Assembly: GCF_012563545.1 (NCBI RefSeq)
Contig: NZ_CP050804.1
Coordinates: forward strand, 1,843,285-1,907,284
From: Arcanobacterium buesumense
GTDB lineage: Bacteria; Actinomycetota; Actinomycetes; Actinomycetales; Actinomycetaceae
Length of the DNA stretch: 64,000 nt
Direction: 5' to 3'
Part shown: positions 31,169 through 52,419 of the stretch, piece by piece
Layout of the letters: every line of letters begins with the position of its first letter
How positions within the stretch are numbered: position 1 is the first letter of the stretch
Position numbers and translations under genes: made by a program
The notes under the pieces: model-generated
What the model was told of the DNA's origin: nothing
What the model saw: only the letters and a program-made list of their open reading frames with translations
Databases searched by the model: none

Positions 31169-32465
31169 GTGCTAGCTGCACTCCACCTTCTTGTTTCTCG
31201 CCTACGAATCGCTGGCCCTGATGAGGCTCTTGTTATTTCCGGTGCTGGGGAATCTGGGGCGATGAAAATTGTTCCTCCGGGTGGCAAAGTTTTTGTTGTG
31301 CCGATTTTGCAGAGCACTTCTAAGATTTCGTTGGAAGCCTACAAGATTCCGTTGTGATTGACTGCCTTGACCGGTCCACAATTCCACTCGATATTGAAGC
31401 AGTGGCAATGGTCAAGATTGGTCGTCGAACTCATCGATTCGGGCTGCATCAGAACGTTTCAATGGCCGTCAAGAAACACTGCCAGACTCCGTCGTCGAAG
31501 TTCTTTCCGGAACTCTACGTTCGGTCGCTGGCCGATTGTCTGTATCGGAACTTATTTCTGATCGTGAAACGTTCTCCAGCCAGGTCGCGCAAGGCGCCGA
31601 AGAAGATCTCGCACGTATGGGCATCCCTGTTGATACGCTACAAATCAAAGATATCTCGGATAAAAACGACTACATCATGGCGTTAAGTGCCCCAGAAGCA
31701 CAACGAGTCTCACGTATTGCGCGCGTAGCAACGGCAGAAAATGAGACGCAGGCAAACGAAGCTGAAGCTGAATCAAAGCGTAAGATCGCTGAACAGAACA
31801 AGGATCTGGAAGTCTACCAGGCCGAAATGAAGCGCATGACGATGGAAGCCCGGGCGATTGCGGATGCGGCTGAGCCGATCGAACGCGCGAAGCAAGAAAA
31901 GCTGATTACGTTGCGCGAGCAGGAAGTCGCCGAGCAAAAGGCTGTTTTGAAGGAACGCGAACTGGAAGCCAGCGTTCGCAAACCGGCTGATGCGGAACGT
32001 TACCGCGTTGAGGTTCAAACTGAGGCTCGCAAGGTTGAGGCCGTGTTGAAGGCAGAAGCCGATGCGGAAGCAATCAAGAAGACCGGTAATGCTCAAGCAG
32101 AAGCAAGCAAGGCTCTTGGTTTGGCGCAGGCAGAAGCAGACAAGGCTCAAGGTTTGGCACGTGCTGAGGCCGACAAGGCTCAAGGTTTGGCAGAAGCAAC
32201 TGCGATGGACGCCAAGGCGTACGAATGCATCGATAAGATGACCGTCATTTCAACCGATGGCACAACCGCCCTCACCCGTGGAGTGACCAACAACGTCAGC
32301 CAGCTCAACGAAGTTATCAACGATCTGTTAGGCATCAACTTGGGAACGCTCACCAGCGGAATCTTGCAATCCACCAAGCTATTCCAAACAGAAGATCATC
32401 AGGCCGAGACAGAGGGCCATGATGCTGAGCTATCCGCCCCGAAAACCGGGCTGGATGAGGAGTAA
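31169..32465 (+). pseudogene. Flotillin-like SPFH (band-7) protein gene disrupted by at least two internal frameshifts plus a probable one at the 5' end
   Basis: Pieces in three frames: LAALHLLVSRLRIAGPDEALVISG..KISLEAYKIPL (frame 2), VIDCLDRSTIPLDIEAVAMVKIG (frame 1), ASERFNGRQETLPDSVVEVLSGTLRSVAGRLSVSELISDRETF... and a long Ala/Glu/Lys coiled coil (frame 0). Together they reconstitute a flotillin (FloT/YuaG-like) layout. Confidence 0.6.
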
Positions 32466-32499
32466 CTTTCTGTTTCTGCTAGACCATCTGGAGAAAAGG

Positions 32500-32528
32500 A
32501 TTGACAGTTGACATACGCCAAAATATGA
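32500..32528 (+). promoter_or_regulatory. Sigma-70-like promoter for the putative tracrRNA. -35 TTGACA (32500-32505), 17-bp spacer, -10 TATGAT (32523-32528).
   Basis: Consensus hexamers with canonical spacing, read directly from the sequence. Confidence 0.4.
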
Positions 32529-32534
32529 TGGGTG

Positions 32535-32640
32535 TGTAACTGATTTCTCAGTAAGCTCTACCATGTTTGTAGAGTTGAATGCTCCACCGGTTTCCGGTTT
32601 TATATTCGGGCTGTGTTTTTCAACACGGCCCGAATATTTT
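32535..32640 (+). ncRNA. tracrRNA: Putative tracrRNA of the type II-C system: 5' anti-repeat, nexus-like hairpin, two further hairpins, intrinsic terminator ending in TTTTT
   Basis: GUGUAACUGAUUUCUCAGU is complementary (one bulge, a few G:U pairs) to the 5' half of the repeat as transcribed from the minus strand (GCUGGGAGUCAGUUACAUAAC). Hairpins ctctac..gtagag and ccgg..ccgg, terminator attcgggc..gcccgaat + ATATTTTT, directly upstream of cas9. Confidence 0.55.
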
Positions 32641-32655
32641 TGCCATAATAGTGTC

Positions 32656-35600
32656 ATGTCTGATGTTATTAATTTTCGTGTAGGTATTGATGTTGGCACT
32701 AATTCAGTGGGTTTAGCCGCTATAGAAATTGGGCCAGATAATTTGCCGTCGAAAATCCTTAATTCTGTAGTTTTTACGCATGATGGTGGCGTGGATCCAC
32801 AAAATCGCAAAACAGCAGCGACTCGGTTAGCTGTCTCGGGAGTGGCCCGTCGAACACGTAGACTCATTCGACGGAGAAAACAACGTCTCCGTGCTCTTGA
32901 TGTTTTCCTACAATCCCATGGATATCCTTGCCCAAACCTTGAAGAGTTCGACGATCCTCACTTTCCGTGGCATGCTCGCGCTCAACTGGTTTCTGAGCCT
33001 GTTGCACAAGAAGAACTACCTGAACTTTTTTCCGTTGCGATACGGCATATAGCCCGCCATCGGGGATGGCGTAATCCTTATTCACGAGTAGAATCACTGC
33101 ATCTGCCAACACCGCCTTCAGAGGAATTGAATAACCTCAAAAATAGACTGATTGAAGAAACCGGAGTCGTACTAGATGAAGATGCGACACCTGCAGAAAT
33201 AATCACTGAAGTTATCTCAGATATGCGAAAGATACGTGGTCCTGAAGGAATCCTCGGTGGAAAACTTCGCCAGTCAGATAACGCAAATGAGATTCGTAAA
33301 ATTGGCGAAGTTCAAGGATTGGATTCCTCTTTTATTAATGACGTTATTGATCATGTGTTCGCTGCCGAATCTCCTAAAGGAAGTTCCGCAAAACGTGCCG
33401 GGAAGGATGAACTTCCAGGCCAGCACGACAAGTTCCGTGCCGAAAAGGCGCATCCTGCATTCCAGGAGTTCCGAATTGTTTCAGTAGTAGCAAATCTACG
33501 TATCAAAGATCTTGAGACAGGAAGTATCCGTAAGCTTACCCGCGATGAGATGGATACAGTTGTTACATATTTAATGAATGCTTCTGCTGAAGATTCTGTT
33601 ACATGGGATGACGTTGCTACCAAATTAGAGATTTCTAGAGATTGTTTATCTGGAACAGCTTCACCTGGCCCAGATGGTGATCGCCCTTATTTGATCCCAC
33701 CAACTAACACAACAAATCAACGCATACTTGAGTCTAAGCTAAAACCGCTTATTGCTTTTTGGAAGAATGCAGATCTAGATACTCGGTCTACACTGATTAA
33801 CGAGATGTCGAATTCATCAGAGATTACCGATGATTCCCCAGGAGCAGAAGAAGTTCATGACTTCTTGACTTCTTTAGCAGACACAGAATTAGAAAAACTA
33901 TCAACAATTAGTCTTCCCGCCGGAAGAGCGGCTTATTCGGTAGATTCACTTCAACGCTTGTCTCGGCGGATGCTTAACGATGGCGTTGATCTTTTCACCG
34001 CACGCAAATTAGAGTTTGATGTGCCTGATGATTGGCGCCCATCAGCTGCCCCTATAGGCGATCCAGTTGGCAATCCTGGAGTTGATAGAGTTCTTAAAAT
34101 TGTTAACCGCTGGTTAATGAATGTTACCGACAAATGGGGAGTTCCAGCCACAGTAAATATCGAGCATATTCGCGGTGGATTTGGTTCCGAAGCTATGGCT
34201 CGTGAATATGAACGTGAAGTTGGACAGCGCTTCAAGCGCAATCAAATGATTATCGCCAAAATACAAAAAGATAATGACATTAGTGGACCTGTCCGTTCCG
34301 CAGATATTACCCGCTACTTGGCCGTTAAGCGCCAAAATGGGGCATGCGCGTATTGTGGTACAACTATTTCTCTGGGAACTTGCGAAATGGATCATATTGT
34401 TCCACGAAAGGGACAAGGCTCTACAAATAGTCGATCCAATTTATTGGCTACCTGCCGTTCTTGTAACCATAGCAAGGGAAATAGGTTGTTTAACTTATGG
34501 GCTAAAGAACAGAACAACCCTAATATCTCATTTGAAAAAGCAAAGGATAGAATCACGTTCTGGATTAAGGATGACGGCTTATCACCAAAACAATGGAACC
34601 AGTTTAAGCGTGATATCATTATGCGACTTGGTCGAGTTACCGAAGATGACGAACTTGATTCACGCTCTATCGAATCAGTTGCTTGGATGGCGAGAGAGCT
34701 TCGCCATCGTATTGAGTCTCATTATTTGTCTACAGGTTCCGATACAAAAGTTAACGTTTTTAAGGGAATGATAACGTCAGAAGCTCGCAAGGCTTCTGGC
34801 TTTGAAATGCAAGTAGAGATGATAGGCGATCGTGGAAAAACACGATTGGATCGACGTCATCATGCTATGGATGCTTGCACTATCGCACTAATGTCTCCTT
34901 ATGTTGCACAGGTGTTGGCTGAGCGCATTAATTTACGAGAGTACCAGCAACTTACTCGTGAACGATTCACCTGGAAAGAGTACCGAGGAAAGGATGAAAC
35001 TCATCGTATTTCCTATGGTAAGTGGCTTAACTCTATGAATCGTCTGTTAGTTCTGTTCAACGAGGCACTGCGCTCTGATTCGATTCCAATTATGGAAGAT
35101 CTTCGTTTACGTCTTGGAAATGGTACTGCTCATGATGCCACTATCCATAAGTTTGGCAAGAAACGCCTTGGTGACGCATGGTCATTCGAAGATATCGACA
35201 AGGCTTCAACCCCACAAATGTGGCTAGCATTAACTCGTTGTTCTGATTTTGACCAAAAGGATGGTCTTCCAGAAAATCCTGAGCGAACTATACGAGTCAA
35301 AGATGTCTACTATACTGCTGATGATGAACTGGAGTTGTTCCGAACTAAGGCAGCACTACTTTCGGTACGCGGAGGTTATGCAGAAATTGGTAATACTATT
35401 CACCATGCTCGCATTTACCGTATCAACGGAAAGAAGATCTCCTATGCGATGGTACGAGTTTTCGCAGTAGATCTTCATAAACACCGCCATGAGGATTTAT
35501 TTAATGTTGTCCTTCCTCCGGAATCTATTTCAATAAGAACTGCTGCGCCAAAAATTAAGCAGGCATTGGCTGATGGAACTGCTGAGTATCTTGGTTGGGT

Positions 35601-35940
35601 TGTTGCTGGGGATGAAATTGAAATCATTCCGTCAGATCCTAAGGCCTTCGCCAAAGGCGCTATAGGTGAATTATTTGAGGATTTCCCTGGGTTGACACGT
35701 TTTAAGCTAGTTGGATTCGACTCTCCTTCAAAACTACGTTTGCGACCAGTCAAGCTTTCTAGCGAAGGCCTCAATGACAACTTTACTTCAGGTAGCCACG
35801 ACATTATTGCTAAAGCTGGGTGGCGTCCAGAAATCAATGTCGTATTTAGCAAAGCTCAAGTACGCGTCATCCGAAGAACTACTTTAGGAAACATTCGGAA
35901 TACCAGTAGTTCACATCTTCCATCATCATGGCAGGTCTAA
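32656..35940 (+). CDS. cas9: Type II-C CRISPR-associated endonuclease Cas9 (compact, about 1094 aa)
   Basis: RuvC-I GIDVGTNSVGLA, RuvC-II NIEHIRGG, HNH DHIVPRKGQGSTNSRSNLLATCRSCNHSKGN, RuvC-III HHAMDACTIAL. Followed by cas1-cas2. Start placed at MSDVINF. The longer ORF from 32563 would overlap the tracrRNA. Confidence 0.95.
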   Translation: MSDVINFRVGIDVGTNSVGLAAIEIGPDNLPSKILNSVVFTHDGGVDPQNRKTAATRLAVSGVARRTRRLIRRRKQRLRALDVFLQSHGYPCPNLEEFDDPHFPWHARAQLVSEPVAQEELPELFSVAIRHIARHRGWRNPYSRVESLHLPTPPSEELNNLKNRLIEETGVVLDEDATPAEIITEVISDMRKIRGPEGILGGKLRQSDNANEIRKIGEVQGLDSSFINDVIDHVFAAESPKGSSAKRAGKDELPGQHDKFRAEKAHPAFQEFRIVSVVANLRIKDLETGSIRKLTRDEMDTVVTYLMNASAEDSVTWDDVATKLEISRDCLSGTASPGPDGDRPYLIPPTNTTNQRILESKLKPLIAFWKNADLDTRSTLINEMSNSSEITDDSPGAEEVHDFLTSLADTELEKLSTISLPAGRAAYSVDSLQRLSRRMLNDGVDLFTARKLEFDVPDDWRPSAAPIGDPVGNPGVDRVLKIVNRWLMNVTDKWGVPATVNIEHIRGGFGSEAMAREYEREVGQRFKRNQMIIAKIQKDNDISGPVRSADITRYLAVKRQNGACAYCGTTISLGTCEMDHIVPRKGQGSTNSRSNLLATCRSCNHSKGNRLFNLWAKEQNNPNISFEKAKDRITFWIKDDGLSPKQWNQFKRDIIMRLGRVTEDDELDSRSIESVAWMARELRHRIESHYLSTGSDTKVNVFKGMITSEARKASGFEMQVEMIGDRGKTRLDRRHHAMDACTIALMSPYVAQVLAERINLREYQQLTRERFTWKEYRGKDETHRISYGKWLNSMNRLLVLFNEALRSDSIPIMEDLRLRLGNGTAHDATIHKFGKKRLGDAWSFEDIDKASTPQMWLALTRCSDFDQKDGLPENPERTIRVKDVYYTADDELELFRTKAALLSVRGGYAEIGNTIHHARIYRINGKKISYAMVRVFAVDLHKHRHEDLFNVVLPPESISIRTAAPKIKQALADGTAEYLGWVVAGDEIEIIPSDPKAFAKGAIGELFEDFPGLTRFKLVGFDSPSKLRLRPVKLSSEGLNDNFTSGSHDIIAKAGWRPEINVVFSKAQVRVIRRTTLGNIRNTSSSHLPSSWQV

Positions 35941-36863
35941 CTACTGAAAGATGGAGGTCCTTGGACTTTAGTCAGTTCAGGGGCTCTATCTCAGCTGTTC
36001 GTGGAGCGTTGTCGGTTAAAAATGATGAATTAGATCTGACTGTCCCAACAGCTGATGTTAGTGTCGTTCTTATTGGCGTTGGCACAAAACTATCTGCCGG
36101 AGCTATGCACCGTCTCTTAGAAGATGATGTTGCAGTTATTTTTTGTGATTGGAAGGGCGTTCCCTATGGTGGTTCTTTTGGATGGAGCGATCATAGCCGA
36201 GTAGGTGCTCGCCATCGTGCCCAAGCTTCTCTCTCGGAGCCAAAAAGAAAATCGACCTGGGCTCGTATCGTAAAGGCAAAAATTTTAGGTCAAGCGGCCG
36301 TGCTTGACTACTGTTCACGTCCCGGGGGCTCCTTACTGCGTAACCTATCAAAAAATGTACGATCTGGTGATACTTCTAATGTTGAAGGTCAAGCGGCAAG
36401 ATCTTATTGGCAATATTTGTGGGGTGATGAAGGATTTAAACGGCAGCCGGGAATACGGGATCAAGTTCTTCCAAGTAACTCAATGCTTGACTACGGTTAT
36501 ACAATTCTTAGAGGTCACGCGATACGGGCGGTTTTTAGCGCAGGTTTATCGCCAACTATTGGGTTGTTTCATCATGGGCGTTCCAATTATTTTGCACTTG
36601 CAGATGACATTATTGAGCCATTTCGCCCTGCGATAGATGCGTGTATCGCATCAGAGTTTTCCGGTGAATCAATTGAAAGTCCTGACATTCGCAGAGCTAT
36701 CGTTGAGGTTGCACATTCCACTTTCGGACAGACTGGGAATTCCATTCCAACTGAAATGACAGCTCTTGCTCAACGTTTAGGACAATTAATCGAAGGGGAT
36801 CCACAGAAGCTATTGGTTAATGTGTGGTCGCCTATTATGACCTTAGGCATCACAGATGAGTAG
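35928..36863 (+). CDS. cas1: CRISPR-associated endonuclease Cas1 (type II)
   Basis: Conserved Cas1 blocks (..LDYGYTILRG.., acidic C-terminal region). Start overlaps the cas9 stop. Confidence 0.9.
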   Translation: MAGLTTERWRSLDFSQFRGSISAVRGALSVKNDELDLTVPTADVSVVLIGVGTKLSAGAMHRLLEDDVAVIFCDWKGVPYGGSFGWSDHSRVGARHRAQASLSEPKRKSTWARIVKAKILGQAAVLDYCSRPGGSLLRNLSKNVRSGDTSNVEGQAARSYWQYLWGDEGFKRQPGIRDQVLPSNSMLDYGYTILRGHAIRAVFSAGLSPTIGLFHHGRSNYFALADDIIEPFRPAIDACIASEFSGESIESPDIRRAIVEVAHSTFGQTGNSIPTEMTALAQRLGQLIEGDPQKLLVNVWSPIMTLGITDE

Positions 36864-37176
36864 TGATCCCATGTGGTGTCTTGTAATGTTTGACTTACCA
36901 ACGAAAACAGCTTCACAAAAACGTGAGTATTCGTCATTTCGAAATTATTTGTTAGATATTGGTTTTTCTCGTGTGCAATATAGTGTTTACGTACACTACT
37001 CCCCCACAGGGCTTATTGGTACTCGTCTAGTCAAGGGAATCAAAGCTAATCTTCCGCCTGGTGGCGAGGTTAGGATTGTTCACATCAGCGATAGACAATG
37101 GTCCAAAGCATTTCGTTTTGCTAATGCAATTGAAGAAAAACCAGAAGAAGCTCCCCAGCAATTAATGATTTTTTAG
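36856..37176 (+). CDS. cas2: CRISPR-associated endoribonuclease Cas2
   Basis: About 100 aa. N-terminal LVMFDLP pattern typical of Cas2. Overlaps the cas1 stop. Confidence 0.85.
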   Translation: MSSDPMWCLVMFDLPTKTASQKREYSSFRNYLLDIGFSRVQYSVYVHYSPTGLIGTRLVKGIKANLPPGGEVRIVHISDRQWSKAFRFANAIEEKPEEAPQQLMIF

Positions 37177-37226
37177 TGTTTGGGGCACCATTTTTTGTTG
37201 AAATAGTGCCCCAAACACTAACTCCT

Positions 37227-38030
37227 TAAGTCTATCAAGGAGTTATGTAACTGACTCCCAGCCCTCGATTTTAGCTGCTCTGGCATCGTCTAAGTCTATC
37301 AAGGAGTTATGTAACTGACTCCCAGCCCTGAACAGCTCCATGCGAATACTCGATTAAGTCTATCAAGGAGTTATGTAACTGACTCCCAGCACGCCACCCT
37401 GGCTTACTGAACGTGCCGTAAGTCTATCAAGGAGTTATGTAACTGACTCCCAGCGCTGCGGCGCGAACCAGAAGCAGAAGCTTAAGTCTATCAAGGAGTT
37501 ATGTAACTGACTCCCAGCCTGGCCTTGCACTTGTTGCATTTCGATCTAAGTCTATCAAGGAGTTATGTAACTGACTCCCAGCCGCGGTATCTGGGAAATC
37601 CCGGACGTTGTAAGTCTATCAAGGAGTTATGTAACTGACTCCCAGCCTAACGATAACAGGATCGGCAAAGCCCATAAGTCTATCAAGGAGTTATGTAACT
37701 GACTCCCAGCCACTCTTTCAGGCATCGCACAAAAGTTCTAAGTCTATCAAGGAGTTATGTAACTGACTCCCAGCTAGAAGAAGCTATCGAACAGATTGGC
37801 GCTAAGTCTATCAAGGAGTTATGTAACTGACTCCCAGCGGCGAAAATAGTTAGGTTTACAGCGTCTTAAGTCTATCAAGGAGTTATGTAACTGACTCCCA
37901 GCCTATTCTAGGGGTTCCACGCGTGATACTTAAGTCTATCAAGGAGTTATGTAACTGACTCCCAGCAACCGCAACAAATCAACGAAAAGGCGCGTAAGCC
38001 CCTTAAGGAATTACGCAGCCAGATCCCAAC
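37227..38030. CRISPR. CRISPR array: 12 identical 36-nt repeats (taagtctatcaaggagttatgtaactgactcccagc) plus one degenerate terminal repeat (37995-38030), 12 spacers of 28 nt, period 64. It is probably transcribed on the minus strand.
   Basis: Repeat positions counted directly: 37227, 37291, 37355, 37419, 37483, 37547, 37611, 37675, 37739, 37803, 37867, 37931, and degenerate at 37995. Confidence 0.95.
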
Positions 38031-38621
38031 ACTAGCGAAGATACATTCTTGGAACGCCCCAACCAAATCGCTCCTATTTTCAAGCACAATCATCTTCTTT
38101 TCAAGCGCAATTATCTTCGCGCTTGGTGTAAATTTTATTTGGAACTCATATACGTTCCGAGCAATTGTAGCTCGGCTGACGGTATGAGTTTTCTGTTTTC
38201 TAAATTAACTCCAAGTGAACGCCCTTAACCCCAAGCAAACACCGCCTTTGGTCTTAGTTTACTTTCTCAATGTTCCCGATTCTAATACGATCATCACGCC
38301 TACCCACCCTGCCGACATAGTGGATACCGGTTTCTCAATGCGGCACTCTTCCTTTGTGCATTATTAAATGCGTTATGGATTTATATTCTCTTTCAAAGGC
38401 TTCACTACAAGGAGACAAATCGCTTCCCGCTACATTGCGGGAGCAGCTGAGTCGCATCTTGTTGATGTAGAATCGTTGCAAAATTACTCAAGGTTTGAAC
38501 AATCAATTGGTTTATTTAATGCTTGACCAGTCAGCCAGATAAAGGGGCTAAGAGCCATGTCAAATAGGTCATTTTTATGCGATGCAGAGCAACAGCCTTT
38601 GCCAGACGGTGAAAACGGCAA

Positions 38622-48883: not shown

Positions 48884-50245
48884 ATGACTTTTCTTGGTTT
48901 ACGCAATACTGCTGGCATGATTGCCGGGCATCTTGCTACTACCGCGTCGCGCACGCTAGGCCGTGGCTCGGGCGGCATGATCGGCGGCCGGGTAGCTTCC
49001 CGGATCGCCCCGAATCTCCTGCGCGATTTAACCCAGCGCATGAAAGTAGTCGTCATTACAGGTACGAACGGTAAATCCACCACCACGCGAATGATCGCGG
49101 AGGCAGTCACCGCCGATGGCCTGAATGTGGCAACCAATCGTGGCGGGGACAATATGCTCCCCGGCGTTTTAGCTGCCGTCCTGCAGGATCCGAAAGCTGA
49201 TGTCGCCGTCCTCGAAGTGGATGAAATGTGGGTGGCGCGCGTAGCTCAAGAAGTTAACCCAGACGTTTTCGTTTTCCTTAATCTGAGCCGGGACCAGCTG
49301 GATCGCGTTGGCGAAATCGCCTCGATCGAACGCCGGTTACGCAGCGCCATCGACGCTCACCCGAACGCTACCGTGATCGCCAACATCGACGATCCACTCA
49401 TGACCTCCGCCGCCTGGGATTCTCATAATCCAGTATGGGTGGCTGCCGGCCAAGGCTGGTCAGGCGATTCGCTCACCTCGCCGCGCACCGGCGGCATCAT
49501 TGTTTATGGCGACGACGAACGAGCCCACACCTCCGATTCACAGGTTCCGCCAGCTTCGGGTCAAGATTCACAGGTTTGGTGGCGGGCCGTTGGTCTTGAT
49601 GCAGACCTCGGCACATCCGAGGCGTCAACCTTTGCGCGCCCCTACCCGGACTGGTCGTGGAGCGTGGCAGAGTCCAACTATCAGCCTGGTGTTCCCATGC
49701 AGGTGCATGGACCAGATGGAACCACGGACGTCGTCGTCAATCTTCCGGGCCGCGCAAATCGTTCCAATGCGAGCCAAGCACTCGCCGCAGCCCATGCGCT
49801 CGGCGTGAACCCGGAGGTCGCCGCTCGCTGTATTGCCGGCGTTTCGTCGGTGGCTGGGCGGTACGCGAACGTGAACATCGATGGGCGAAACGTGCGGTTA
49901 TTGCTGGCGAAAAACCCGGCCGGCTGGCAAGAATCATTAACTATGCTTCGCCCCGGCGCGGCCCTCGTGGTGGGAATCAACGGGCAAGTGGCCGACGGCG
50001 TCGACCTGTCCTGGCTTTGGGATGTCAAATTCTCTCAACTCGCCTCTCGGCAGGTCTGGGCGTGCGGCGAACGCGGCGCCGATCTCAACGTGCGCCTCCA
50101 CTATGCCGGCGTAGCAGCCGATTTCATCGCCGACCCGGTGGACGCCATCCAGGCCACCCCGCCTGGCGATGTTGATGTTCTGCTGAACTACACGTCATTC
50201 CGCGACACCCGCGCAGCATTAAGGAAACGAGGCTATGAGGTATGA
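48884..50245 (+). CDS. murT: Lipid II isoglutaminyl synthase, Mur-ligase-like subunit MurT
   Basis: Mur ligase P-loop GTNGKSTTT. C-terminal DUF1727-like region. Immediately followed by gatD. Confidence 0.8.
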   Translation: MTFLGLRNTAGMIAGHLATTASRTLGRGSGGMIGGRVASRIAPNLLRDLTQRMKVVVITGTNGKSTTTRMIAEAVTADGLNVATNRGGDNMLPGVLAAVLQDPKADVAVLEVDEMWVARVAQEVNPDVFVFLNLSRDQLDRVGEIASIERRLRSAIDAHPNATVIANIDDPLMTSAAWDSHNPVWVAAGQGWSGDSLTSPRTGGIIVYGDDERAHTSDSQVPPASGQDSQVWWRAVGLDADLGTSEASTFARPYPDWSWSVAESNYQPGVPMQVHGPDGTTDVVVNLPGRANRSNASQALAAAHALGVNPEVAARCIAGVSSVAGRYANVNIDGRNVRLLLAKNPAGWQESLTMLRPGAALVVGINGQVADGVDLSWLWDVKFSQLASRQVWACGERGADLNVRLHYAGVAADFIADPVDAIQATPPGDVDVLLNYTSFRDTRAALRKRGYEV

Positions 50246-51060
50246 GTTTACGTATTGGAGTGCTTCTGCCAGAAGTGTTAGGCACATACGGCGATTCGGG
50301 AAACGCTGAGATTTTGGCGTTTCGGGCGCAGGCTCGCGGAATCGATACGCAAATCGTTCACGTAGGTATCGACGAAGCCATCCCGGACTCGCTCGATATT
50401 TACACCCTCGGCGGGGGCGAAGACATTGCCCAAACCATTGCATCTCGCAAACTCGCATCCGATTCTGGGCTAGCCCGCGCGGTGGCTGCTGGCCGGCCAG
50501 TGCTGGCGATTTGTGCCGCCTTGCAGGTGCTCGGCACTTACTATACTGACGCAGACGGCAAGAAAACTGCCGGGGCTGGCCTGCTCGACGTCGTCACTCT
50601 CCCCCAAGGATTGCGCGCGATTGGCGAATTGCGGAGCGAACCTGGGCCGGGGCTGGCTGCCCGCGGGGTAACCGACACGCTGTATGGTTTTGAGAATCAT
50701 GGTGGCGGTACGGCGCTCGGGCCGGATGCTTCGCCTTTTGGGCTGGTCACGTTCGGTACTGGTAATGGCGTTCCGGGTGTGGCACCGGCGCGTACTAACG
50801 ATTCGCGCACGCCCGATCCGAAACTAGTTTTGGCTGGCACGCCTGATGGTTATGTGACTGAGGTTGATGGTCGGCGGATTGACGGCGCAGTGCAAGGATC
50901 GGTTTTTGCTACCTACATGCACGGCCCGGTCTTGGCACGTAACCCGCAGCTGGCAGATATGCTCATTGCCATGGCTACCGGGGATGCACTTGCGCCACTG
51001 GACGTGCCGGGGGTGGCTGATTTGCGCGCCGAGCGCGAGCGGTTTATCGCCGGTCAGTAG
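50242..51060 (+). CDS. gatD: Lipid II isoglutaminyl synthase glutaminase subunit GatD (CobB/CobQ-like glutamine amidotransferase)
   Basis: GATase1-like layout with a conserved Cys in VLAICAALQVLG and a C-terminal His. Translationally coupled to murT. Confidence 0.8.
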   Translation: MSLRIGVLLPEVLGTYGDSGNAEILAFRAQARGIDTQIVHVGIDEAIPDSLDIYTLGGGEDIAQTIASRKLASDSGLARAVAAGRPVLAICAALQVLGTYYTDADGKKTAGAGLLDVVTLPQGLRAIGELRSEPGPGLAARGVTDTLYGFENHGGGTALGPDASPFGLVTFGTGNGVPGVAPARTNDSRTPDPKLVLAGTPDGYVTEVDGRRIDGAVQGSVFATYMHGPVLARNPQLADMLIAMATGDALAPLDVPGVADLRAERERFIAGQ

Positions 51061-51097
51061 CCGGCGTTGGCCCGGGCCCATCACCCCGGTTAACTAG

Positions 51098-51218
51098 CCC
51101 GATTAGCCCGGTTAGCCAGTCCGATTTCCCTGGCCCGCCGGGGATCCCTGCACAAAATCTCGAAATCCAGCACGGTAGCCCGCCATAGACCGCTACCGTT
51201 TCGCTGGGCGAGATTTTG
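51098..51218. repeat. Copy D of the dispersed palindromic repeat family (core 51153-51218). It overlaps the last about 9 codons of the minus-strand methyltransferase gene.
   Basis: cacaaaatctcgaaatccagcacggtagcccgccatagaccgctaccgtttcgctgggcgagattttg, with upstream cccgattagcccggttag as in copy A. Confidence 0.7.
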
Positions 51219-52419
51219 TGCGGGACACTAACAACACGATTACCTCGCAGTGCTTCGTATGCGGGAACATGTCCACAACCTGCCCGCGCGTCACCTCATA
51301 TTCCGGCATCCGCGCTATATCTCGCGCTAGCGTTTCCGGGTTGCACGATGAGTACACCACTTGTGGTATACCAGAATCGTTGAGCCACTGGCACAGTTCT
51401 GCGCTTAGCCCGCGTCGTGGCGGATTGACGACGACGGCGTCCGGCATCTCGCCTTCGGCACGAGCCGCCCAGGCGGTAGCATCGCCAGCAATAAACTGCA
51501 CCCGATCGGCACACCCCATCTGCTCGGCAGTCTGGGATGCCGCCTGAACTGCTTGTTCGGAGGTTTCCACGCCAACAATGTGTCCGTGAGTGCGCGCGGC
51601 AGCCAACGCGAGCGCAAACCCGCCAACTCCGCAATATAGATCCCACACATTATCCGCGTCTGCTAGCCAGGTGACAGCATTATGGTAGAGCGCGGTGGCG
51701 GCATCGGTGTTTGTTTGGAAGAAAGATTGCGGACGCAGGTTTAACGTCAACGGTTCTGCCAGTGCAGGAATGTCTAAGACCATCGGCAAGACGTCGGTTT
51801 CGGTGATCAAAATTTCTTCGGCGCCTTCAATAATTGCTTTATGTTCGGGTTGCACATTGAGTGAGATAACCCGAATATTGGGTAGCATTACCCGCAGTTC
51901 GGCTTGGCGTTTGAACAGGATACCTTGTACTCCGCGCCGGCGAGCCACGAATCGAACCATGAGTTCGCCATCGTCAGACTCGGTGATGATAACGTATTTG
52001 AGCACCCCGACGTTAGTCGCCGGCGAATACGGTTCTAACCGGCAGGCGGTAATAAATTGTGCGATTGAGGGGATTGCGCCACGGATACCGGGGGTTGGCA
52101 GTGGGCAGTCACGCAGGTCGACTCCGCGTCCATCGTCACCTAAAATCCCCAACTTCGGGCGCCCTACCGTTCCGGTAACAACAAGCTTGACTTTGTTGCG
52201 GAAAGCTTGTGGACGCGATGTGAATGGATCTTCCCAGTGCCCGACGTCGATCAGCTCGCAGACGCGCTTGTTTTTGGCGTGAATCTGGCGTGGGTAGGGA
52301 GTTAACAGGTCGGTGCATGACCGGCATTGTCCGGCTTGAAAATAGTGACAGTCGAGGATCTGAGGGTTGACTGGACGGTGACGCATTGCGCGGTGGATAT
52401 TACGTGCGGTTTTAAACAT
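51193..52419 (-). CDS. TrmA/RumA-family SAM-dependent RNA (uracil-5)-methyltransferase (RlmC/RlmD-like)
   Basis: N-terminal Cys cluster (CHYFQAGQCRSC). Class-I MTase motifs (VWDLYCGVGGFAL). C-terminal nucleophile motif VVYSSCNP. Confidence 0.75.
   Translation of the reverse strand: MFKTARNIHRAMRHRPVNPQILDCHYFQAGQCRSCTDLLTPYPRQIHAKNKRVCELIDVGHWEDPFTSRPQAFRNKVKLVVTGTVGRPKLGILGDDGRGVDLRDCPLPTPGIRGAIPSIAQFITACRLEPYSPATNVGVLKYVIITESDDGELMVRFVARRRGVQGILFKRQAELRVMLPNIRVISLNVQPEHKAIIEGAEEILITETDVLPMVLDIPALAEPLTLNLRPQSFFQTNTDAATALYHNAVTWLADADNVWDLYCGVGGFALALAAARTHGHIVGVETSEQAVQAASQTAEQMGCADRVQFIAGDATAWAARAEGEMPDAVVVNPPRRGLSAELCQWLNDSGIPQVVYSSCNPETLARDIARMPEYEVTRGQVVDMFPHTKHCEVIVLLVSRTKSRPAKR

Follow-up and report, generated by a model that had tools for sequence, protein, structure and literature searches.

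The window analysed here, a 64,000-nucleotide stretch of the Arcanobacterium buesumense chromosome, contains a complete, apparently working and ordinary type II-C CRISPR-Cas9 locus. The one unusual feature of the locus, which is also new, is that spacer 6 perfectly matches a siphovirus-like prophage on the same 1.94-Mb chromosome. Sequence comparisons taken jointly make it highly probable that we are dealing with chromosomal, vertically inherited and functional II-C adaptive immunity, in which spacer 6 is most likely tolerated through a non-permissive PAM. The tracrRNA, cas9, cas1, cas2 and the 12-spacer array together span 32501–38030, and all of these parts were found where the original prediction had placed them:

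32501–32529, plus strand: tracrRNA promoter (TTGACA, 17-nt spacer, TATGAT)
about 32536–32641, plus strand: tracrRNA of about 106 nt with predicted 5' end, between promoter and cas9
32536–32552, plus strand: tracrRNA anti-repeat
32554–32576, plus strand: tracrRNA stem-loop 1
32577–32585, plus strand: tracrRNA single-stranded linker GAAUGCUCC
32586–32598, plus strand: tracrRNA stem-loop 2
32602–32637, plus strand: tracrRNA terminator hairpin, with a U-run reaching 32641
32641–32649, plus strand: extended -10 box TGcCATAAT, ending 6 nt before the cas9 start codon
32656–35940, plus strand: cas9, 1094 aa, type II-C, actinobacterial clade
35928–36863, plus strand: cas1, 311 aa (TIGR03639 type II Cas1, 224 bits, cut-off 120; PF01867)
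36856–37176, plus strand: cas2, 106 aa (TIGR01573, 60 bits, cut-off 24.5; PF09827)
37177–37226, no strand: cas2–array junction, putative spacer-integration (leader) side
37227–38030, minus strand: CRISPR array, 12 identical 36-nt repeats and one degenerate repeat, 12 spacers of 28 nt
37583–37610, minus strand: spacer 6, self-targeting, guide sense CAACGUCCGGGAUUUCCCAGAUACCGCG, 28/28 match to the prophage
37995–38030, minus strand: degenerate 13th repeat, 23/36 identical, first in the transcription direction and adjoining the oldest spacer

Gene content and the Cas9 protein

The genes cas9, cas1 and cas2 would be transcribed from the plus strand; cas1 overlaps cas9 by 13 nt and cas2 overlaps cas1 by 8 nt. 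The II-C assignment and gene order proposed earlier are supported, with cas1 and cas2 as the sole adaptation genes. There is indeed neither csn2 (II-A) nor cas4 (II-B): the array follows cas2 after 50 nt, and the genes around the locus are unrelated (transglutaminase-like, SPFH/flotillin, APH-family phosphotransferase and lacto-N-biose phosphorylase). Of these, the flotillin gene is disrupted.

The locus does form a lower-GC block as first described (GC 0.437–0.457 over 33–39 kb versus about 0.49–0.53 in the flanks). Despite this, recent horizontal transfer was rejected, because the locus is syntenic with that of the closest relative at ~79% nucleotide identity and is therefore old in the lineage. 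The comparison set used here and below consisted of 80 related loci.

The cas9 open reading frame covers 32563–35940, and its real start is the ATG at 32656, from which the protein begins MSDVINFRVGIDVGT and has the length of the GenBank protein. The A. buesumense Cas9 was previously deposited in GenBank, already under the name Cas9 (QJC22566.1/WP_168918488.1), and the protein of the locus is 100% identical to QJC22566.1. It matches TIGR01865 (207 bits) and contains the Pfam domains Cas9_a, RuvC_III, HNH, Cas9_b_hairpin, Cas9_Topo and Cas9_C. The RuvC-I/II/III and HNH motifs are intact, as had been claimed, with D12, E503, H580, N604, H735/H736 and D739 invariant in an 18-sequence alignment; loss of the catalytic Asp or His, named in the original prediction as a refuting condition, was not seen, and the residues align with the conserved motifs of AnaCas9. 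Across 119 clade members, 209 columns show conservation of 95% or more, and this Cas9 deviates at none of them, compared with a median of 2 and a maximum of 9 deviations per sequence.

The best relatives of solved structure are AnaCas9 (4ogc, 956 bits), CdCas9 (6joo, 845 bits) and 8d2k (488 bits). Full-length similarity and the same domain set place the protein, by sequence, in the actinobacterial II-C clade of AnaCas9 and CdCas9. Its nearest homologues come from Arcanobacterium, Trueperella, Actinomyces, Corynebacterium and related genera, the Cas9 of the Actinomyces relatives being ~44–50% identical in the searches made.

No Shine-Dalgarno sequence is present ahead of cas9. Scanning for promoters upstream of the gene gave TCAACA-18-CATAAT with a TG preceding the second hexamer, and TAnnnT is found 5–8 nt (mostly exactly 6) ahead of the cas9 start codon in 18 of 62 related loci. 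These features suggest that cas9 is probably translated from a leaderless mRNA.

Guide RNAs and the array

The tracrRNA position given in the original prediction is borne out by its location between a near-consensus promoter and cas9. This promoter agrees with the consensus at 11 of 12 positions, and no other site within 32300–38400 looks as much like a promoter; the tracrRNA would thus have its own strong promoter just upstream of cas9. Its predicted fold reaches -43.1 kcal/mol (z = -7.4), and the duplex between the anti-repeat and the minus-strand repeat is predicted at -27.6 kcal/mol with one bulge. A search of Rfam gave no family matching the tracrRNA. Among the related loci a homologous element was identified in 58 of 80, in 53 of them on the cas9 strand, typically about 100–290 nt upstream of the cas9 match (about 1.5 kb in L024). 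By these comparisons the tracrRNA is conserved among related loci, and stem-loop 1 covaries strongly (93.7% paired, with 113 double-compensatory cells, a level that none of 500 shuffles attained). The mean energy of cognate repeat:tracr duplexes is -25.3 kcal/mol versus -16.9 kcal/mol for non-cognate pairs, which points to co-evolution of repeat and anti-repeat.

The strand of the guides, which matters for any sgRNA design, was absent from the original prediction. The sequence indicates that crRNA transcription uses the minus strand and thus runs antisense to cas9: since the anti-repeat is a plus-strand element similar to the repeat on that strand, a minus-strand transcript is the only one with which it can pair. 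This orientation agrees with the CdCas9 guide scaffold, which in its experimentally used form begins ACTGGGG (PMC6488586).

The array repeat is TAAGTCTATCAAGGAGTTATGTAACTGACTCCCAGC on the plus strand and GCUGGGAGUCAGUUACAUAACUCCUUGAUAGACUUA in crRNA sense. Read in the latter sense, each repeat ends with TGATAGACT, an extended -10 box located 2 nt ahead of where the repeat ends. Such a box is shared widely: of 53 distinct clade repeats, 49 contain TGnTAnnnT and every one contains TAnnnT. The final 11 nt of the repeat are conserved at 1.22 bits per position despite falling outside the duplex, compared with an average of 0.69 bits in the middle. The box is probably a promoter, a function we infer from sequence; the same arrangement is established for II-C systems in Neisseria and Campylobacter (PMC12080349). 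The conservation of the repeat 3' end could instead reflect recognition by the Cas1–Cas2 integrase. If the box is a promoter, the array would be transcribed towards cas2 from the 3' end of every repeat, and because of this placement each crRNA transcript would start about 4–5 nt inside the spacer, giving a guide of ~23–24 nt followed by the repeat. The first 17–23 nt of the repeat would then pair with the tracrRNA anti-repeat.

An exact 64-nt period from 37227 confirms the 12-spacer array with 36-nt repeats and 28-nt spacers. The uniform spacer length, which had been singled out as short for II-C, is real and yet not peculiar, since 1426 of 1502 spacers (95%) of related arrays are 28 nt long; this length is the norm across the actinobacterial II-C clade. 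The 12 array repeats are identical, and there is therefore no array decay. Mutated or degenerate repeats are located at the cas-distal end in this array and in most related arrays, and a minus-strand terminator-like hairpin is present here at 38004–37985. At the other end, a 13-bp hairpin extends over 37176–37218 at the cas2–array junction. According to PMC12080349, type II-C arrays gain spacers at the repeat that is last in the transcription direction, and the first repeat is a source of extraneous crRNA, which II-C systems counteract. In A. buesumense, Cas1–Cas2 would insert new 28-nt spacers at the cas2-proximal repeat; five spacers separate spacer 6 from that end of the array. We take a mutated first repeat to be one way of countering extraneous crRNA, a reading of our own that goes beyond the cited text.

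The self-targeting spacer and its prophage

The spacer search suggested by the original prediction yielded one protospacer, that of spacer 6 in the same genome, and no target for the other spacers in the collections searched. When the complete array was compared by BLAST with 50,697 phage records and 72,556 plasmids, the only matches were partial ones of 26–29 nt at chance level (E 3–9), and neither the rest of the window nor the 80 related loci contained a target. When exact 20–22-nt cores of spacers 1–7 were scanned in IMG/VR, spacer 6 alone matched; it is an exact match to positions 837–864 of IMGVR_UViG_2884129782_000001. The repeat and the prophage terminase were each used in one metagenome scan, and neither scan gave a match. 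The arrays of the two closest relatives match the same phage group as spacer 6.

The 35.8-kb siphovirus-like prophage carries endolysin, tail fibre and tape-measure genes. Both its tape-measure protein (QJC22004.1) and the product of the protospacer gene (P0242) are proteins of A. buesumense (chromosome 1,941,174 bp). The basis for placing Cas9 and prophage in one genome includes species names, the GenBank accession series and the shared sequencing run SRR11560446, in which the CRISPR locus and the prophage are on contigs 17 and 28.

Spacer 6 matches within an Aca2-like gene that belongs to a small operon at the end of the prophage. The 135-aa product matches the Pfam family Aca2_YdiL with E = 2.9e-4 and 21.4 bits, which is below the cut-off of 23.8. 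It has only one homologue among 5.8 billion proteins, and its AlphaFold model (pLDDT 74.8) is therefore built on only two sequences. The best PDB fold matches of this model are the Aca2 structures 7ezy, 7vjp and 7b5j (E 4e-4 to 1.5e-3), aligned over the full length with TM-scores of 0.42–0.49 and 16–19% sequence identity. The protein had no tblastn match among phages, and a PDB sequence search returned designed pentatricopeptide repeats only, which were rejected as spurious. The gene belongs to a four-gene minus-strand operon of small ORFs with a 120-aa first gene and an acidic 86-aa last gene; the ORFs upstream of it (120 aa and 111 aa) have no family assignment. The operon adjoins sequence that we read as resembling a tRNA 3' end, where ARAGORN calls no tRNA.

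Guide-loaded Cas9 would cut PAM-flanked phage DNA with its HNH and RuvC domains. By analogy with related Cas9 proteins, our analysis suggests that the self-match is most likely tolerated because its flank is a non-permissive PAM. The single known protospacer is flanked by 5'-CTCCCAC-3'. Protospacers of the two closest orthologues gave the inferred motifs NNANCC and NNGCC (the latter for the A. haemolyticum orthologue), which are consistent and lie on the 3' side, where the PAM is predicted. CTCCCAC fits neither of them: both have a purine at position 3, where the self-target has C, and R1017, with which CdCas9 reads the purine at this position, is conserved in A. buesumense Cas9 as R1028. In a survey of >100,000 genomes, a consensus PAM accompanied only ~1.5% of the self-targeting spacers of type II systems, II-C being left out of that PAM analysis (PMC7708048). 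The flank CTCCCA is also found in a related A. phocae prophage, and there is thus no sign of a PAM-escape mutation. How a spacer came to be acquired beside a non-PAM would have to be explained separately, for example by sloppy or flipped integration.

Transfer of the PAM from either relative (L083, 84% identical; L084, 72% identical) was rejected, as the motifs of the two disagree. Divergence within Cas9 is greatest in the PAM-contact loops, which are hypervariable among orthologues and unlike those of both relatives; the PI domain is 78% identical to that of L083. A preference for C at PAM position 1, seen when the first four flanks were pooled, did not hold with more data.

A doubtful alternative is that the system is active and the self-PAM usable, with autoimmunity prevented by an anti-CRISPR from the targeted prophage. 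The perfect self-match beside a Cas9 without degeneration and the lack of an escape mutation in the flank would fit such a situation, as would the Aca2 fold matches and sub-threshold Aca2_YdiL match of the protospacer gene and its position within a four-gene operon of small unassigned ORFs. Acr proteins are moreover 36-fold enriched in genomes with self-targeting spacers (PMC7708048). The 120-aa first and acidic 86-aa last genes of the operon are the candidates. The related A. phocae prophage has another first gene (189 instead of 120 aa) between a conserved promoter region and conserved downstream genes, a pattern that we take to be typical of acr–aca loci. Aca2 itself (Pectobacterium phage ZF40; PDB 7VJO, 7B5J, 7EZY) is similar in size to the protospacer gene product, which is likewise encoded downstream of small uncharacterised genes at a prophage end; in contrast to Aca2, the prophage gene has no validated acr gene beside it. 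To our knowledge, Aca2 loci have been described in Proteobacteria and not in Actinomycetota. The Aca2/YdiL fold also occurs outside anti-CRISPR loci, and the TM-scores and the Pfam match are low. In the part of the prophage that was read (all but ~14 of its 35.8 kb), no candidate resembles a known Acr, and Pfam, NCBIfam and PHROGs are empty for the candidates. The 120-aa protein has only weak N-terminal matches to hypothetical phage proteins, and the sole Pfam matches of its 111-aa neighbour are weak, sub-threshold and of HTH type, so that the latter may be a DNA-binding protein and not an inhibitor. The base rate for type II also favours a PAM mismatch. We consider it unlikely that the Aca2-like operon encodes an anti-CRISPR that blocks A. 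buesumense Cas9, and that only by this means does the lysogen survive a PAM-competent self-target.

It is still less probable that the locus is a silent or decaying relic, with genes unexpressed or a complex too weak, for which self-targeting would be without consequence. The perfect self-target in the middle of the array and the 11 other spacers without targets in the collections searched could be read in this way; the disrupted flotillin neighbour means that local decay does occur, and the related CdCas9 cuts slower than SpCas9 in vitro (PMC6488586). The locus itself carries no such marks: Cas9 lacks any deviation at the clade-conserved columns, the full-length cas1 and cas2 score strongly against their families, the 12 repeats are identical, the tracrRNA has a near-consensus promoter and every conserved element, and five spacers follow spacer 6 on the integration side. 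Missing targets are expected for a seal-associated species with almost no sequenced phages.

Plus-strand guides running in the direction of cas9, as in type II-A, would give the usual leader-driven picture (an array that continues from cas2 on its strand and has its degenerate repeat farthest away) and would move the PAM to the other flank of the self-target, TCGCCGA, which reads as the NNGCC of the A. haemolyticum orthologue, but this is very improbable, as minus-strand pairing reaches -27.6 to -28.6 kcal/mol versus about -19 for other combinations, the minus-strand repeat/anti-repeat relation holds in 48 loci and is kept in L010 and L015, where the array is inverted and the tracrRNA is not, the validated CdCas9 scaffold has the corresponding start, and 10 independent protospacers of two relatives show a motif only on the flank predicted from minus-strand guides.

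Relation to known systems and editing value

AnaCas9 from Actinomyces naeslundii (PDB 4OGC/4OGE) is the best solved relative over its full length, sharing the RuvC-I, RuvC-II, HNH and RuvC-III motifs in a chain of 1101 residues versus 1094 aa. In the related A. naeslundii locus (L040), too, a tracrRNA lies upstream and the array has 36+28 geometry. A. buesumense Cas9 and AnaCas9 differ in the loops aligned with the PAM-contacting region of CdCas9 (GFDSPSKLRLRP in A. buesumense versus GYDTNSKLTLKP in AnaCas9), and AnaCas9 has Thr at the position equivalent to CdCas9 R1017. The AnaCas9 structure was solved without RNA (PMC6488586) and therefore provides no guide or PAM information.

CdCas9 from Corynebacterium diphtheriae (PDB 6JOO; PMC6488586) belongs to the same clade and, with 1084 aa, is about the size of A. 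buesumense Cas9. The guide scaffolds resemble each other in the [A/G]CUGGG repeat start, the repeat:anti-repeat duplex, stem-loop 1, the linker and stem-loop 2; in the CdCas9 sgRNA the linker G-C-U-C-C is recognised base-specifically (PMC6488586). The optimal CdCas9 guide of 22 nt (21–24 work) fits the predicted 23–24 nt. Of the six PAM-contact residues, K1015 and R1017 are kept (as K1026 and R1028) and four differ (F1011->D, R1042->K, P1043->A, L1046->R), so that the CdCas9 PAM NNRHHHY is not transferable; the self-target flank violates it at position 3.

Like the II-C systems of Neisseria meningitidis and Campylobacter jejuni, the A. buesumense locus lacks csn2 and cas4 and has an array antisense to cas9 with an extended -10 box at the repeat 3' end, a degenerate first repeat and a probable integration end downstream in the transcription direction (PMC12080349). 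It differs from them in its 28-nt instead of 30-nt spacers and in the tracrRNA upstream of cas9. NmeCas9-type chains represent a different branch, matching with about 56–62 bits in the RuvC-II/HNH region only (about residues 468–762).

The novelty and editing value claimed in the original prediction were overstated, given a protein already deposited and named and a clade with solved structures. CdCas9 gave no indels when vector-expressed in human cells, and its RNPs edited mouse zygotes at low efficiency only (PMC6488586). As an editing nuclease, A. buesumense Cas9 is a routine orthologue that adds little. An intact Cas9 and a perfect protospacer in an Aca2-like operon on one chromosome are a classic entry point for anti-CRISPR discovery. 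We know of no anti-CRISPR for the actinobacterial (AnaCas9/CdCas9) branch of II-C, and a prophage anti-CRISPR would, if true, be the first inhibitor for this branch as far as known.

The analysis also provides a usable guide design, with a minus-strand crRNA, tracrRNA boundaries and a guide of likely 23–24 nt. The 28-nt spacers, the upstream tracrRNA and the -10 box in every repeat are clade-wide rules that extend over 60 or more loci, and NNANCC and NNGCC are first PAM estimates for two neighbouring orthologues.

Gene content of the locus and its Cas9

The locus is a routine, already annotated member of the clade of Actinomyces naeslundii Cas9 (AnaCas9) and Corynebacterium diphtheriae Cas9 (CdCas9), and its seemingly odd features are norms of that clade. 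The present analysis adds which strand encodes the guides and how their scaffold is built, sequence-based evidence that repeats throughout the clade each carry a putative promoter, PAM estimates for two neighbouring orthologues and a self-targeting spacer pointing to a candidate anti-CRISPR locus. An ORF map, a tandem-repeat scan and a repeat finder reproduced the predicted genes and array exactly. The features of the locus are:

32501–32529, plus strand: near-consensus tracrRNA promoter (TTGACA-17-TATGAT, 11 of 12 positions), between the flotillin gene and cas9
32656–35940 (ATG at 32656), plus strand: cas9, 1094 aa; TIGR01865; Pfam Cas9_a, RuvC_III, HNH, Cas9_b_hairpin, Cas9_Topo and Cas9_C
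35928–36863, plus strand: cas1, 311 aa, overlapping cas9; type II Cas1 model TIGR03639 (224 bits)
36856–37176, plus strand: cas2, 106 aa, overlapping cas1; TIGR01573
37227–38030: CRISPR array, 12 identical 36-nt repeats (TAAGTCTATCAAGGAGTTATGTAACTGACTCCCAGC) with a strict 64-nt period and 12 spacers of 28 nt each
37995–38030: degenerate 13th repeat (23/36 identical), closing the array

The gap between cas2 and the array is 50 nt according to the ORF map and the repeat finder. GC content is 0.437–0.457 over 33–39 kb against ≈0.49–0.53 on either flank, which bears out the predicted lower-GC block. Nothing resembling csn2 or cas4 was found among the genes of the locus, again as predicted, and the type II-C assignment is supported.

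The neighbouring genes encode a transglutaminase-like protein, a disrupted SPFH/flotillin protein, an APH-family phosphotransferase and lacto-N-biose phosphorylase. The flotillin gene (31214–32447), which directly precedes the tracrRNA promoter, is spread across three frames, owing to either pseudogenisation or an error in sequencing; its orthologue in the closest Arcanobacterium relative (L083) is intact (499 aa). A 33-nt tandem repeat at 32097–32192 falls inside this gene. A perfect 13-bp hairpin at 37176–37218 (GTGTTTGGGGCAC ... GTGCCCCAAACAC) occupies the short stretch from the cas2 stop codon to the first repeat and may be a terminator of the cas operon or a block to antisense read-through from the array. 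Away from the locus, 49000–52000 forms a block with a GC content of 0.58–0.61 (window mean ≈0.50).

The 1094-aa Cas9 is 100% identical to A. buesumense QJC22566.1/WP_168918488.1, and the locus has thus already been deposited under the correct name; a literature search found no publications on the A. buesumense Cas9 locus. Its nearest relatives are the Cas9 proteins of L083 (84% identical) and A. haemolyticum (L084, 72%), with further relatives (45–63%) in other Arcanobacterium, Trueperella, Actinomyces, Gleimia and Corynebacterium species. The best solved-structure matches are AnaCas9 (4OGC, 956 bits) and CdCas9 (6JOO, 845 bits), whereas NmeCas9-type chains score just ≈56–62 bits, confined to the RuvC-II/HNH region. 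An 18-sequence alignment shows no variation at D12, E503, H580, N604, H735/H736 and D739, and these residues line up with the matching conserved motifs of AnaCas9, so the catalytic motifs are intact, as the original prediction held. Aligning 119 clade members gives 209 columns with conservation of 95% or more, and the window Cas9 deviates at none of these (clade median 2, worst 9). The L083 locus lies in the same chromosomal context and is collinear over the whole stretch between tracrRNA promoter and array (≈79% nucleotide identity), which argues that the locus is old in the lineage, its lower GC notwithstanding.

The protein was also put forward as being of direct interest as an editing nuclease. 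Its size is similar to that of CdCas9 and AnaCas9, and CdCas9 gave no indels by vector expression in human cells and weak editing as RNPs in mouse zygotes (PMC6488586). With the protein already deposited as well, its value as a new genome editor is modest.

A 1125-codon ORF (32563–35940) extends cas9 by 31 codons upstream, across the tracrRNA (32563–32655), and automatic gene calls adopt this 1125-aa form both for a Logan assembly (P0241) and for the closest relative (P0002). We rejected it as a gene-calling artefact, since its start runs through the tracrRNA and the 1094-aa RefSeq form fits the alignment. Within 32641–32658, an extended −10 box (TGcCATAAT) lies exactly 6 nt 5′ of the cas9 ATG, overlapping the end of the tracrRNA terminator, and there is no Shine-Dalgarno sequence; cas9 is therefore probably translated from a leaderless mRNA. 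TAnnnT is found 5–8 nt (mostly exactly 6) 5′ of the start codon in 18 of 62 related loci.

tracrRNA, guide strand and putative repeat promoters

The tracrRNA promoter is followed by the anti-repeat GUAACUGAUUUCUCAGU, whose resemblance to the 3′ portion of the plus-strand repeat lets it pair with the minus-strand repeat transcript. This duplex has a predicted energy of −27.6 kcal/mol with one bulge, compared to ≈−18 to −20 kcal/mol for the remaining strand combinations. A plus-strand anti-repeat means that the guides come from the minus strand, in which sense the crRNA repeat reads GCUGGGAGUCAGUUACAUAACUCCUUGAUAGACUUA; the CdCas9 guide scaffold begins with ACTGGGG (PMC6488586), which fixes the strand. 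The anti-repeat leads into a first stem-loop, which the single-stranded GAAUGCUCC separates from a second one, and the RNA closes with a long terminator hairpin whose U-run reaches 32641 (fold −43.1 kcal/mol, z = −7.4). This is the layout of the CdCas9 sgRNA, where the crystal structure shows the duplex, SL1, an 8-nt linker with base-specifically read G-C-U-C-C, and SL2 (PMC6488586). The predicted guide scaffold is made up of the repeat part GCUGGGAGUCAGUUAC and the anti-repeat, then SL1-linker-SL2.

No Rfam model matches this tracrRNA. An HMM identified the element in 58 of 80 related loci, typically ≈100–290 nt upstream of cas9; its strand is that of cas9 in 53 of them and the opposite one in five (L079, L050, L048, L013 and L052). 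All six pairs of stem-loop 1 covary, with 93.7% of cells paired and 113 cells showing double changes, a signal matched by none of 500 shuffles; slid registers are 29–51% paired. Mean repeat:anti-repeat duplex energies are −25.3 kcal/mol for cognate and −16.9 kcal/mol for non-cognate combinations.

Across the clade, the last 11 nt of the crRNA repeat, which lie outside the duplex, carry 1.22 bits/position against 0.69 mid-repeat, and the conserved end spells an extended −10 box (TGATAGACT in the window repeat, TGATATAAT in that of Gardnerella). TGnTAnnnT ending 2 nt short of the repeat end is seen in 49 of 53 distinct repeats, and TAnnnT in all 53. From this we infer a promoter in every repeat, while the same conservation might alternatively serve integrase recognition. 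A promoter in every repeat would start transcripts ≈7 nt past the −10 box and give guides of 23–24 nt, in agreement with the 21–24 nt needed by CdCas9 (PMC6488586). In the window array and most related arrays the mutated repeats are cas-distal. For the II-C systems of Campylobacter and Neisseria, PMC12080349 describes a promoter per repeat, acquisition at the transcriptionally last repeat and an "extraneous" first repeat that is counteracted, and the arrangement predicted for the window array is the one established there. Two Actinomyces loci (L010 and L015, arrays at ≈10.5 kb) have the entire array turned round with respect to cas9-cas1-cas2, which puts the degenerate repeat at the cas-proximal end; array and tracrRNA can evidently flip independently as modules in this clade.

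The 36-nt repeats and uniform 28-nt spacers are as originally described, but a spacer length of 28 nt is not unusual: it is the clade norm, found for 1426 of 1502 spacers in related arrays (27 nt, n = 19; 29 nt, n = 56; 30 nt, n = 1), where nearly all repeats are 36 nt. The locus of Actinomycetaceae bacterium L2_0104 (L009, 997–14638) also has an array adjoining the II-C genes with a 29-nt repeat (GTGCTCCCCGCGCATGCGGGGATGATCCC) that looks like a type I-E repeat.

A self-targeting spacer and PAM estimates

The suggested spacer search was partly productive. No targets were found within the window, and phage and plasmid collections gave matches at chance level only, but an IMG/VR scan covering seven spacers matched spacer 6 (37583–37610) at 28/28 positions to the prophage contig IMGVR_UViG_2884129782_000001 (837–864; 20585–20612 in the prophage copy L085). 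This siphovirus-like prophage carries endolysin, tail fibre and tape-measure genes. The tape-measure protein matches A. buesumense QJC22004.1 at 100% identity, as the protospacer gene product does A. buesumense P0242; both are encoded on a 1,941,174-bp contig, equal in length to the one that carries cas9. The CRISPR locus and the prophage are also both found in sequencing run SRR11560446 (contigs 17 and 28). Spacer 6 thus targets, without a mismatch, a prophage resident on its own chromosome, with the protospacer gene ≈560 genes from cas9 by GenBank numbering (QJC22004 vs. QJC22566).

The L083 and L084 arrays target the same phage group (targets L085, L086 and the A. phocae prophage L088). For L083, seven independent protospacers gave 5′-NNANCC (6/7 fit), and for L084 5′-NNGCC was seen in 3/3. 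Both motifs occur solely on the side where a minus-strand reading would place the PAM, and provide an initial PAM estimate for each of these uncharacterised orthologues.

The 3′ flank of the self-target is CTCCCACCGT in guide sense; as CTCCCAC it fits neither motif and has C at position 3, where R1017 of CdCas9 reads a purine. This arginine is kept in the window Cas9 as R1028, whereas other CdCas9 PAM contacts differ (F1011 to D, R1042 to K, P1043 to A and L1046 to R); among the orthologues, no part of the protein varies more than the PAM-contact loops. The A. phocae prophage has the same flank (CTCCCAG), thus giving no sign of an escape mutation. On the opposite side the self-protospacer is flanked by TCGCCGA, which fits NNGCC, so spacer 6 may have entered by flipped integration, with TCGCCGA then on the PAM side.

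Tolerance of the self-target

About one in five CRISPR-bearing genomes has self-targeting spacers, most of them directed at prophages, and only ≈1.5% of those of type II have a consensus PAM, a count that leaves out II-C (PMC7708048). Because of this low rate and the position-3 argument, our first choice, at close to even probability, is that the self-target is tolerated through a non-permissive PAM.

That a prophage anti-CRISPR prevents self-cutting is rather unlikely, yet of real interest. The protospacer lies in a gene of 135 aa with a sub-threshold Aca2_YdiL match (E = 2.9e-4, 21.4 vs. 23.8 bits), and a search of the PDB with its model (pLDDT 74.8) ranks Aca2 structures highest, aligned over the full length (E 4e-4 to 1.5e-3, TM 0.42–0.49). 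It belongs to an operon of four small ORFs (120, 111, 135 and 86 aa) without family matches, the last product being acidic (pI 4.1), and the operon is found at the prophage end (L085 19953–21448, minus strand; L088 248–1999) beside a sequence like a tRNA 3′-end, where ARAGORN calls no tRNA. The A. phocae prophage keeps the remaining operon but has an unrelated gene of 189 aa in place of the first one, and two spacers of L083 match this 189-aa gene perfectly. We regard this operon as a candidate anti-CRISPR locus. Most of the remaining probability goes to a silent or very weak CRISPR system, against which stand the perfectly conserved Cas9, the lack of differences between repeats and the strength of the tracrRNA promoter.
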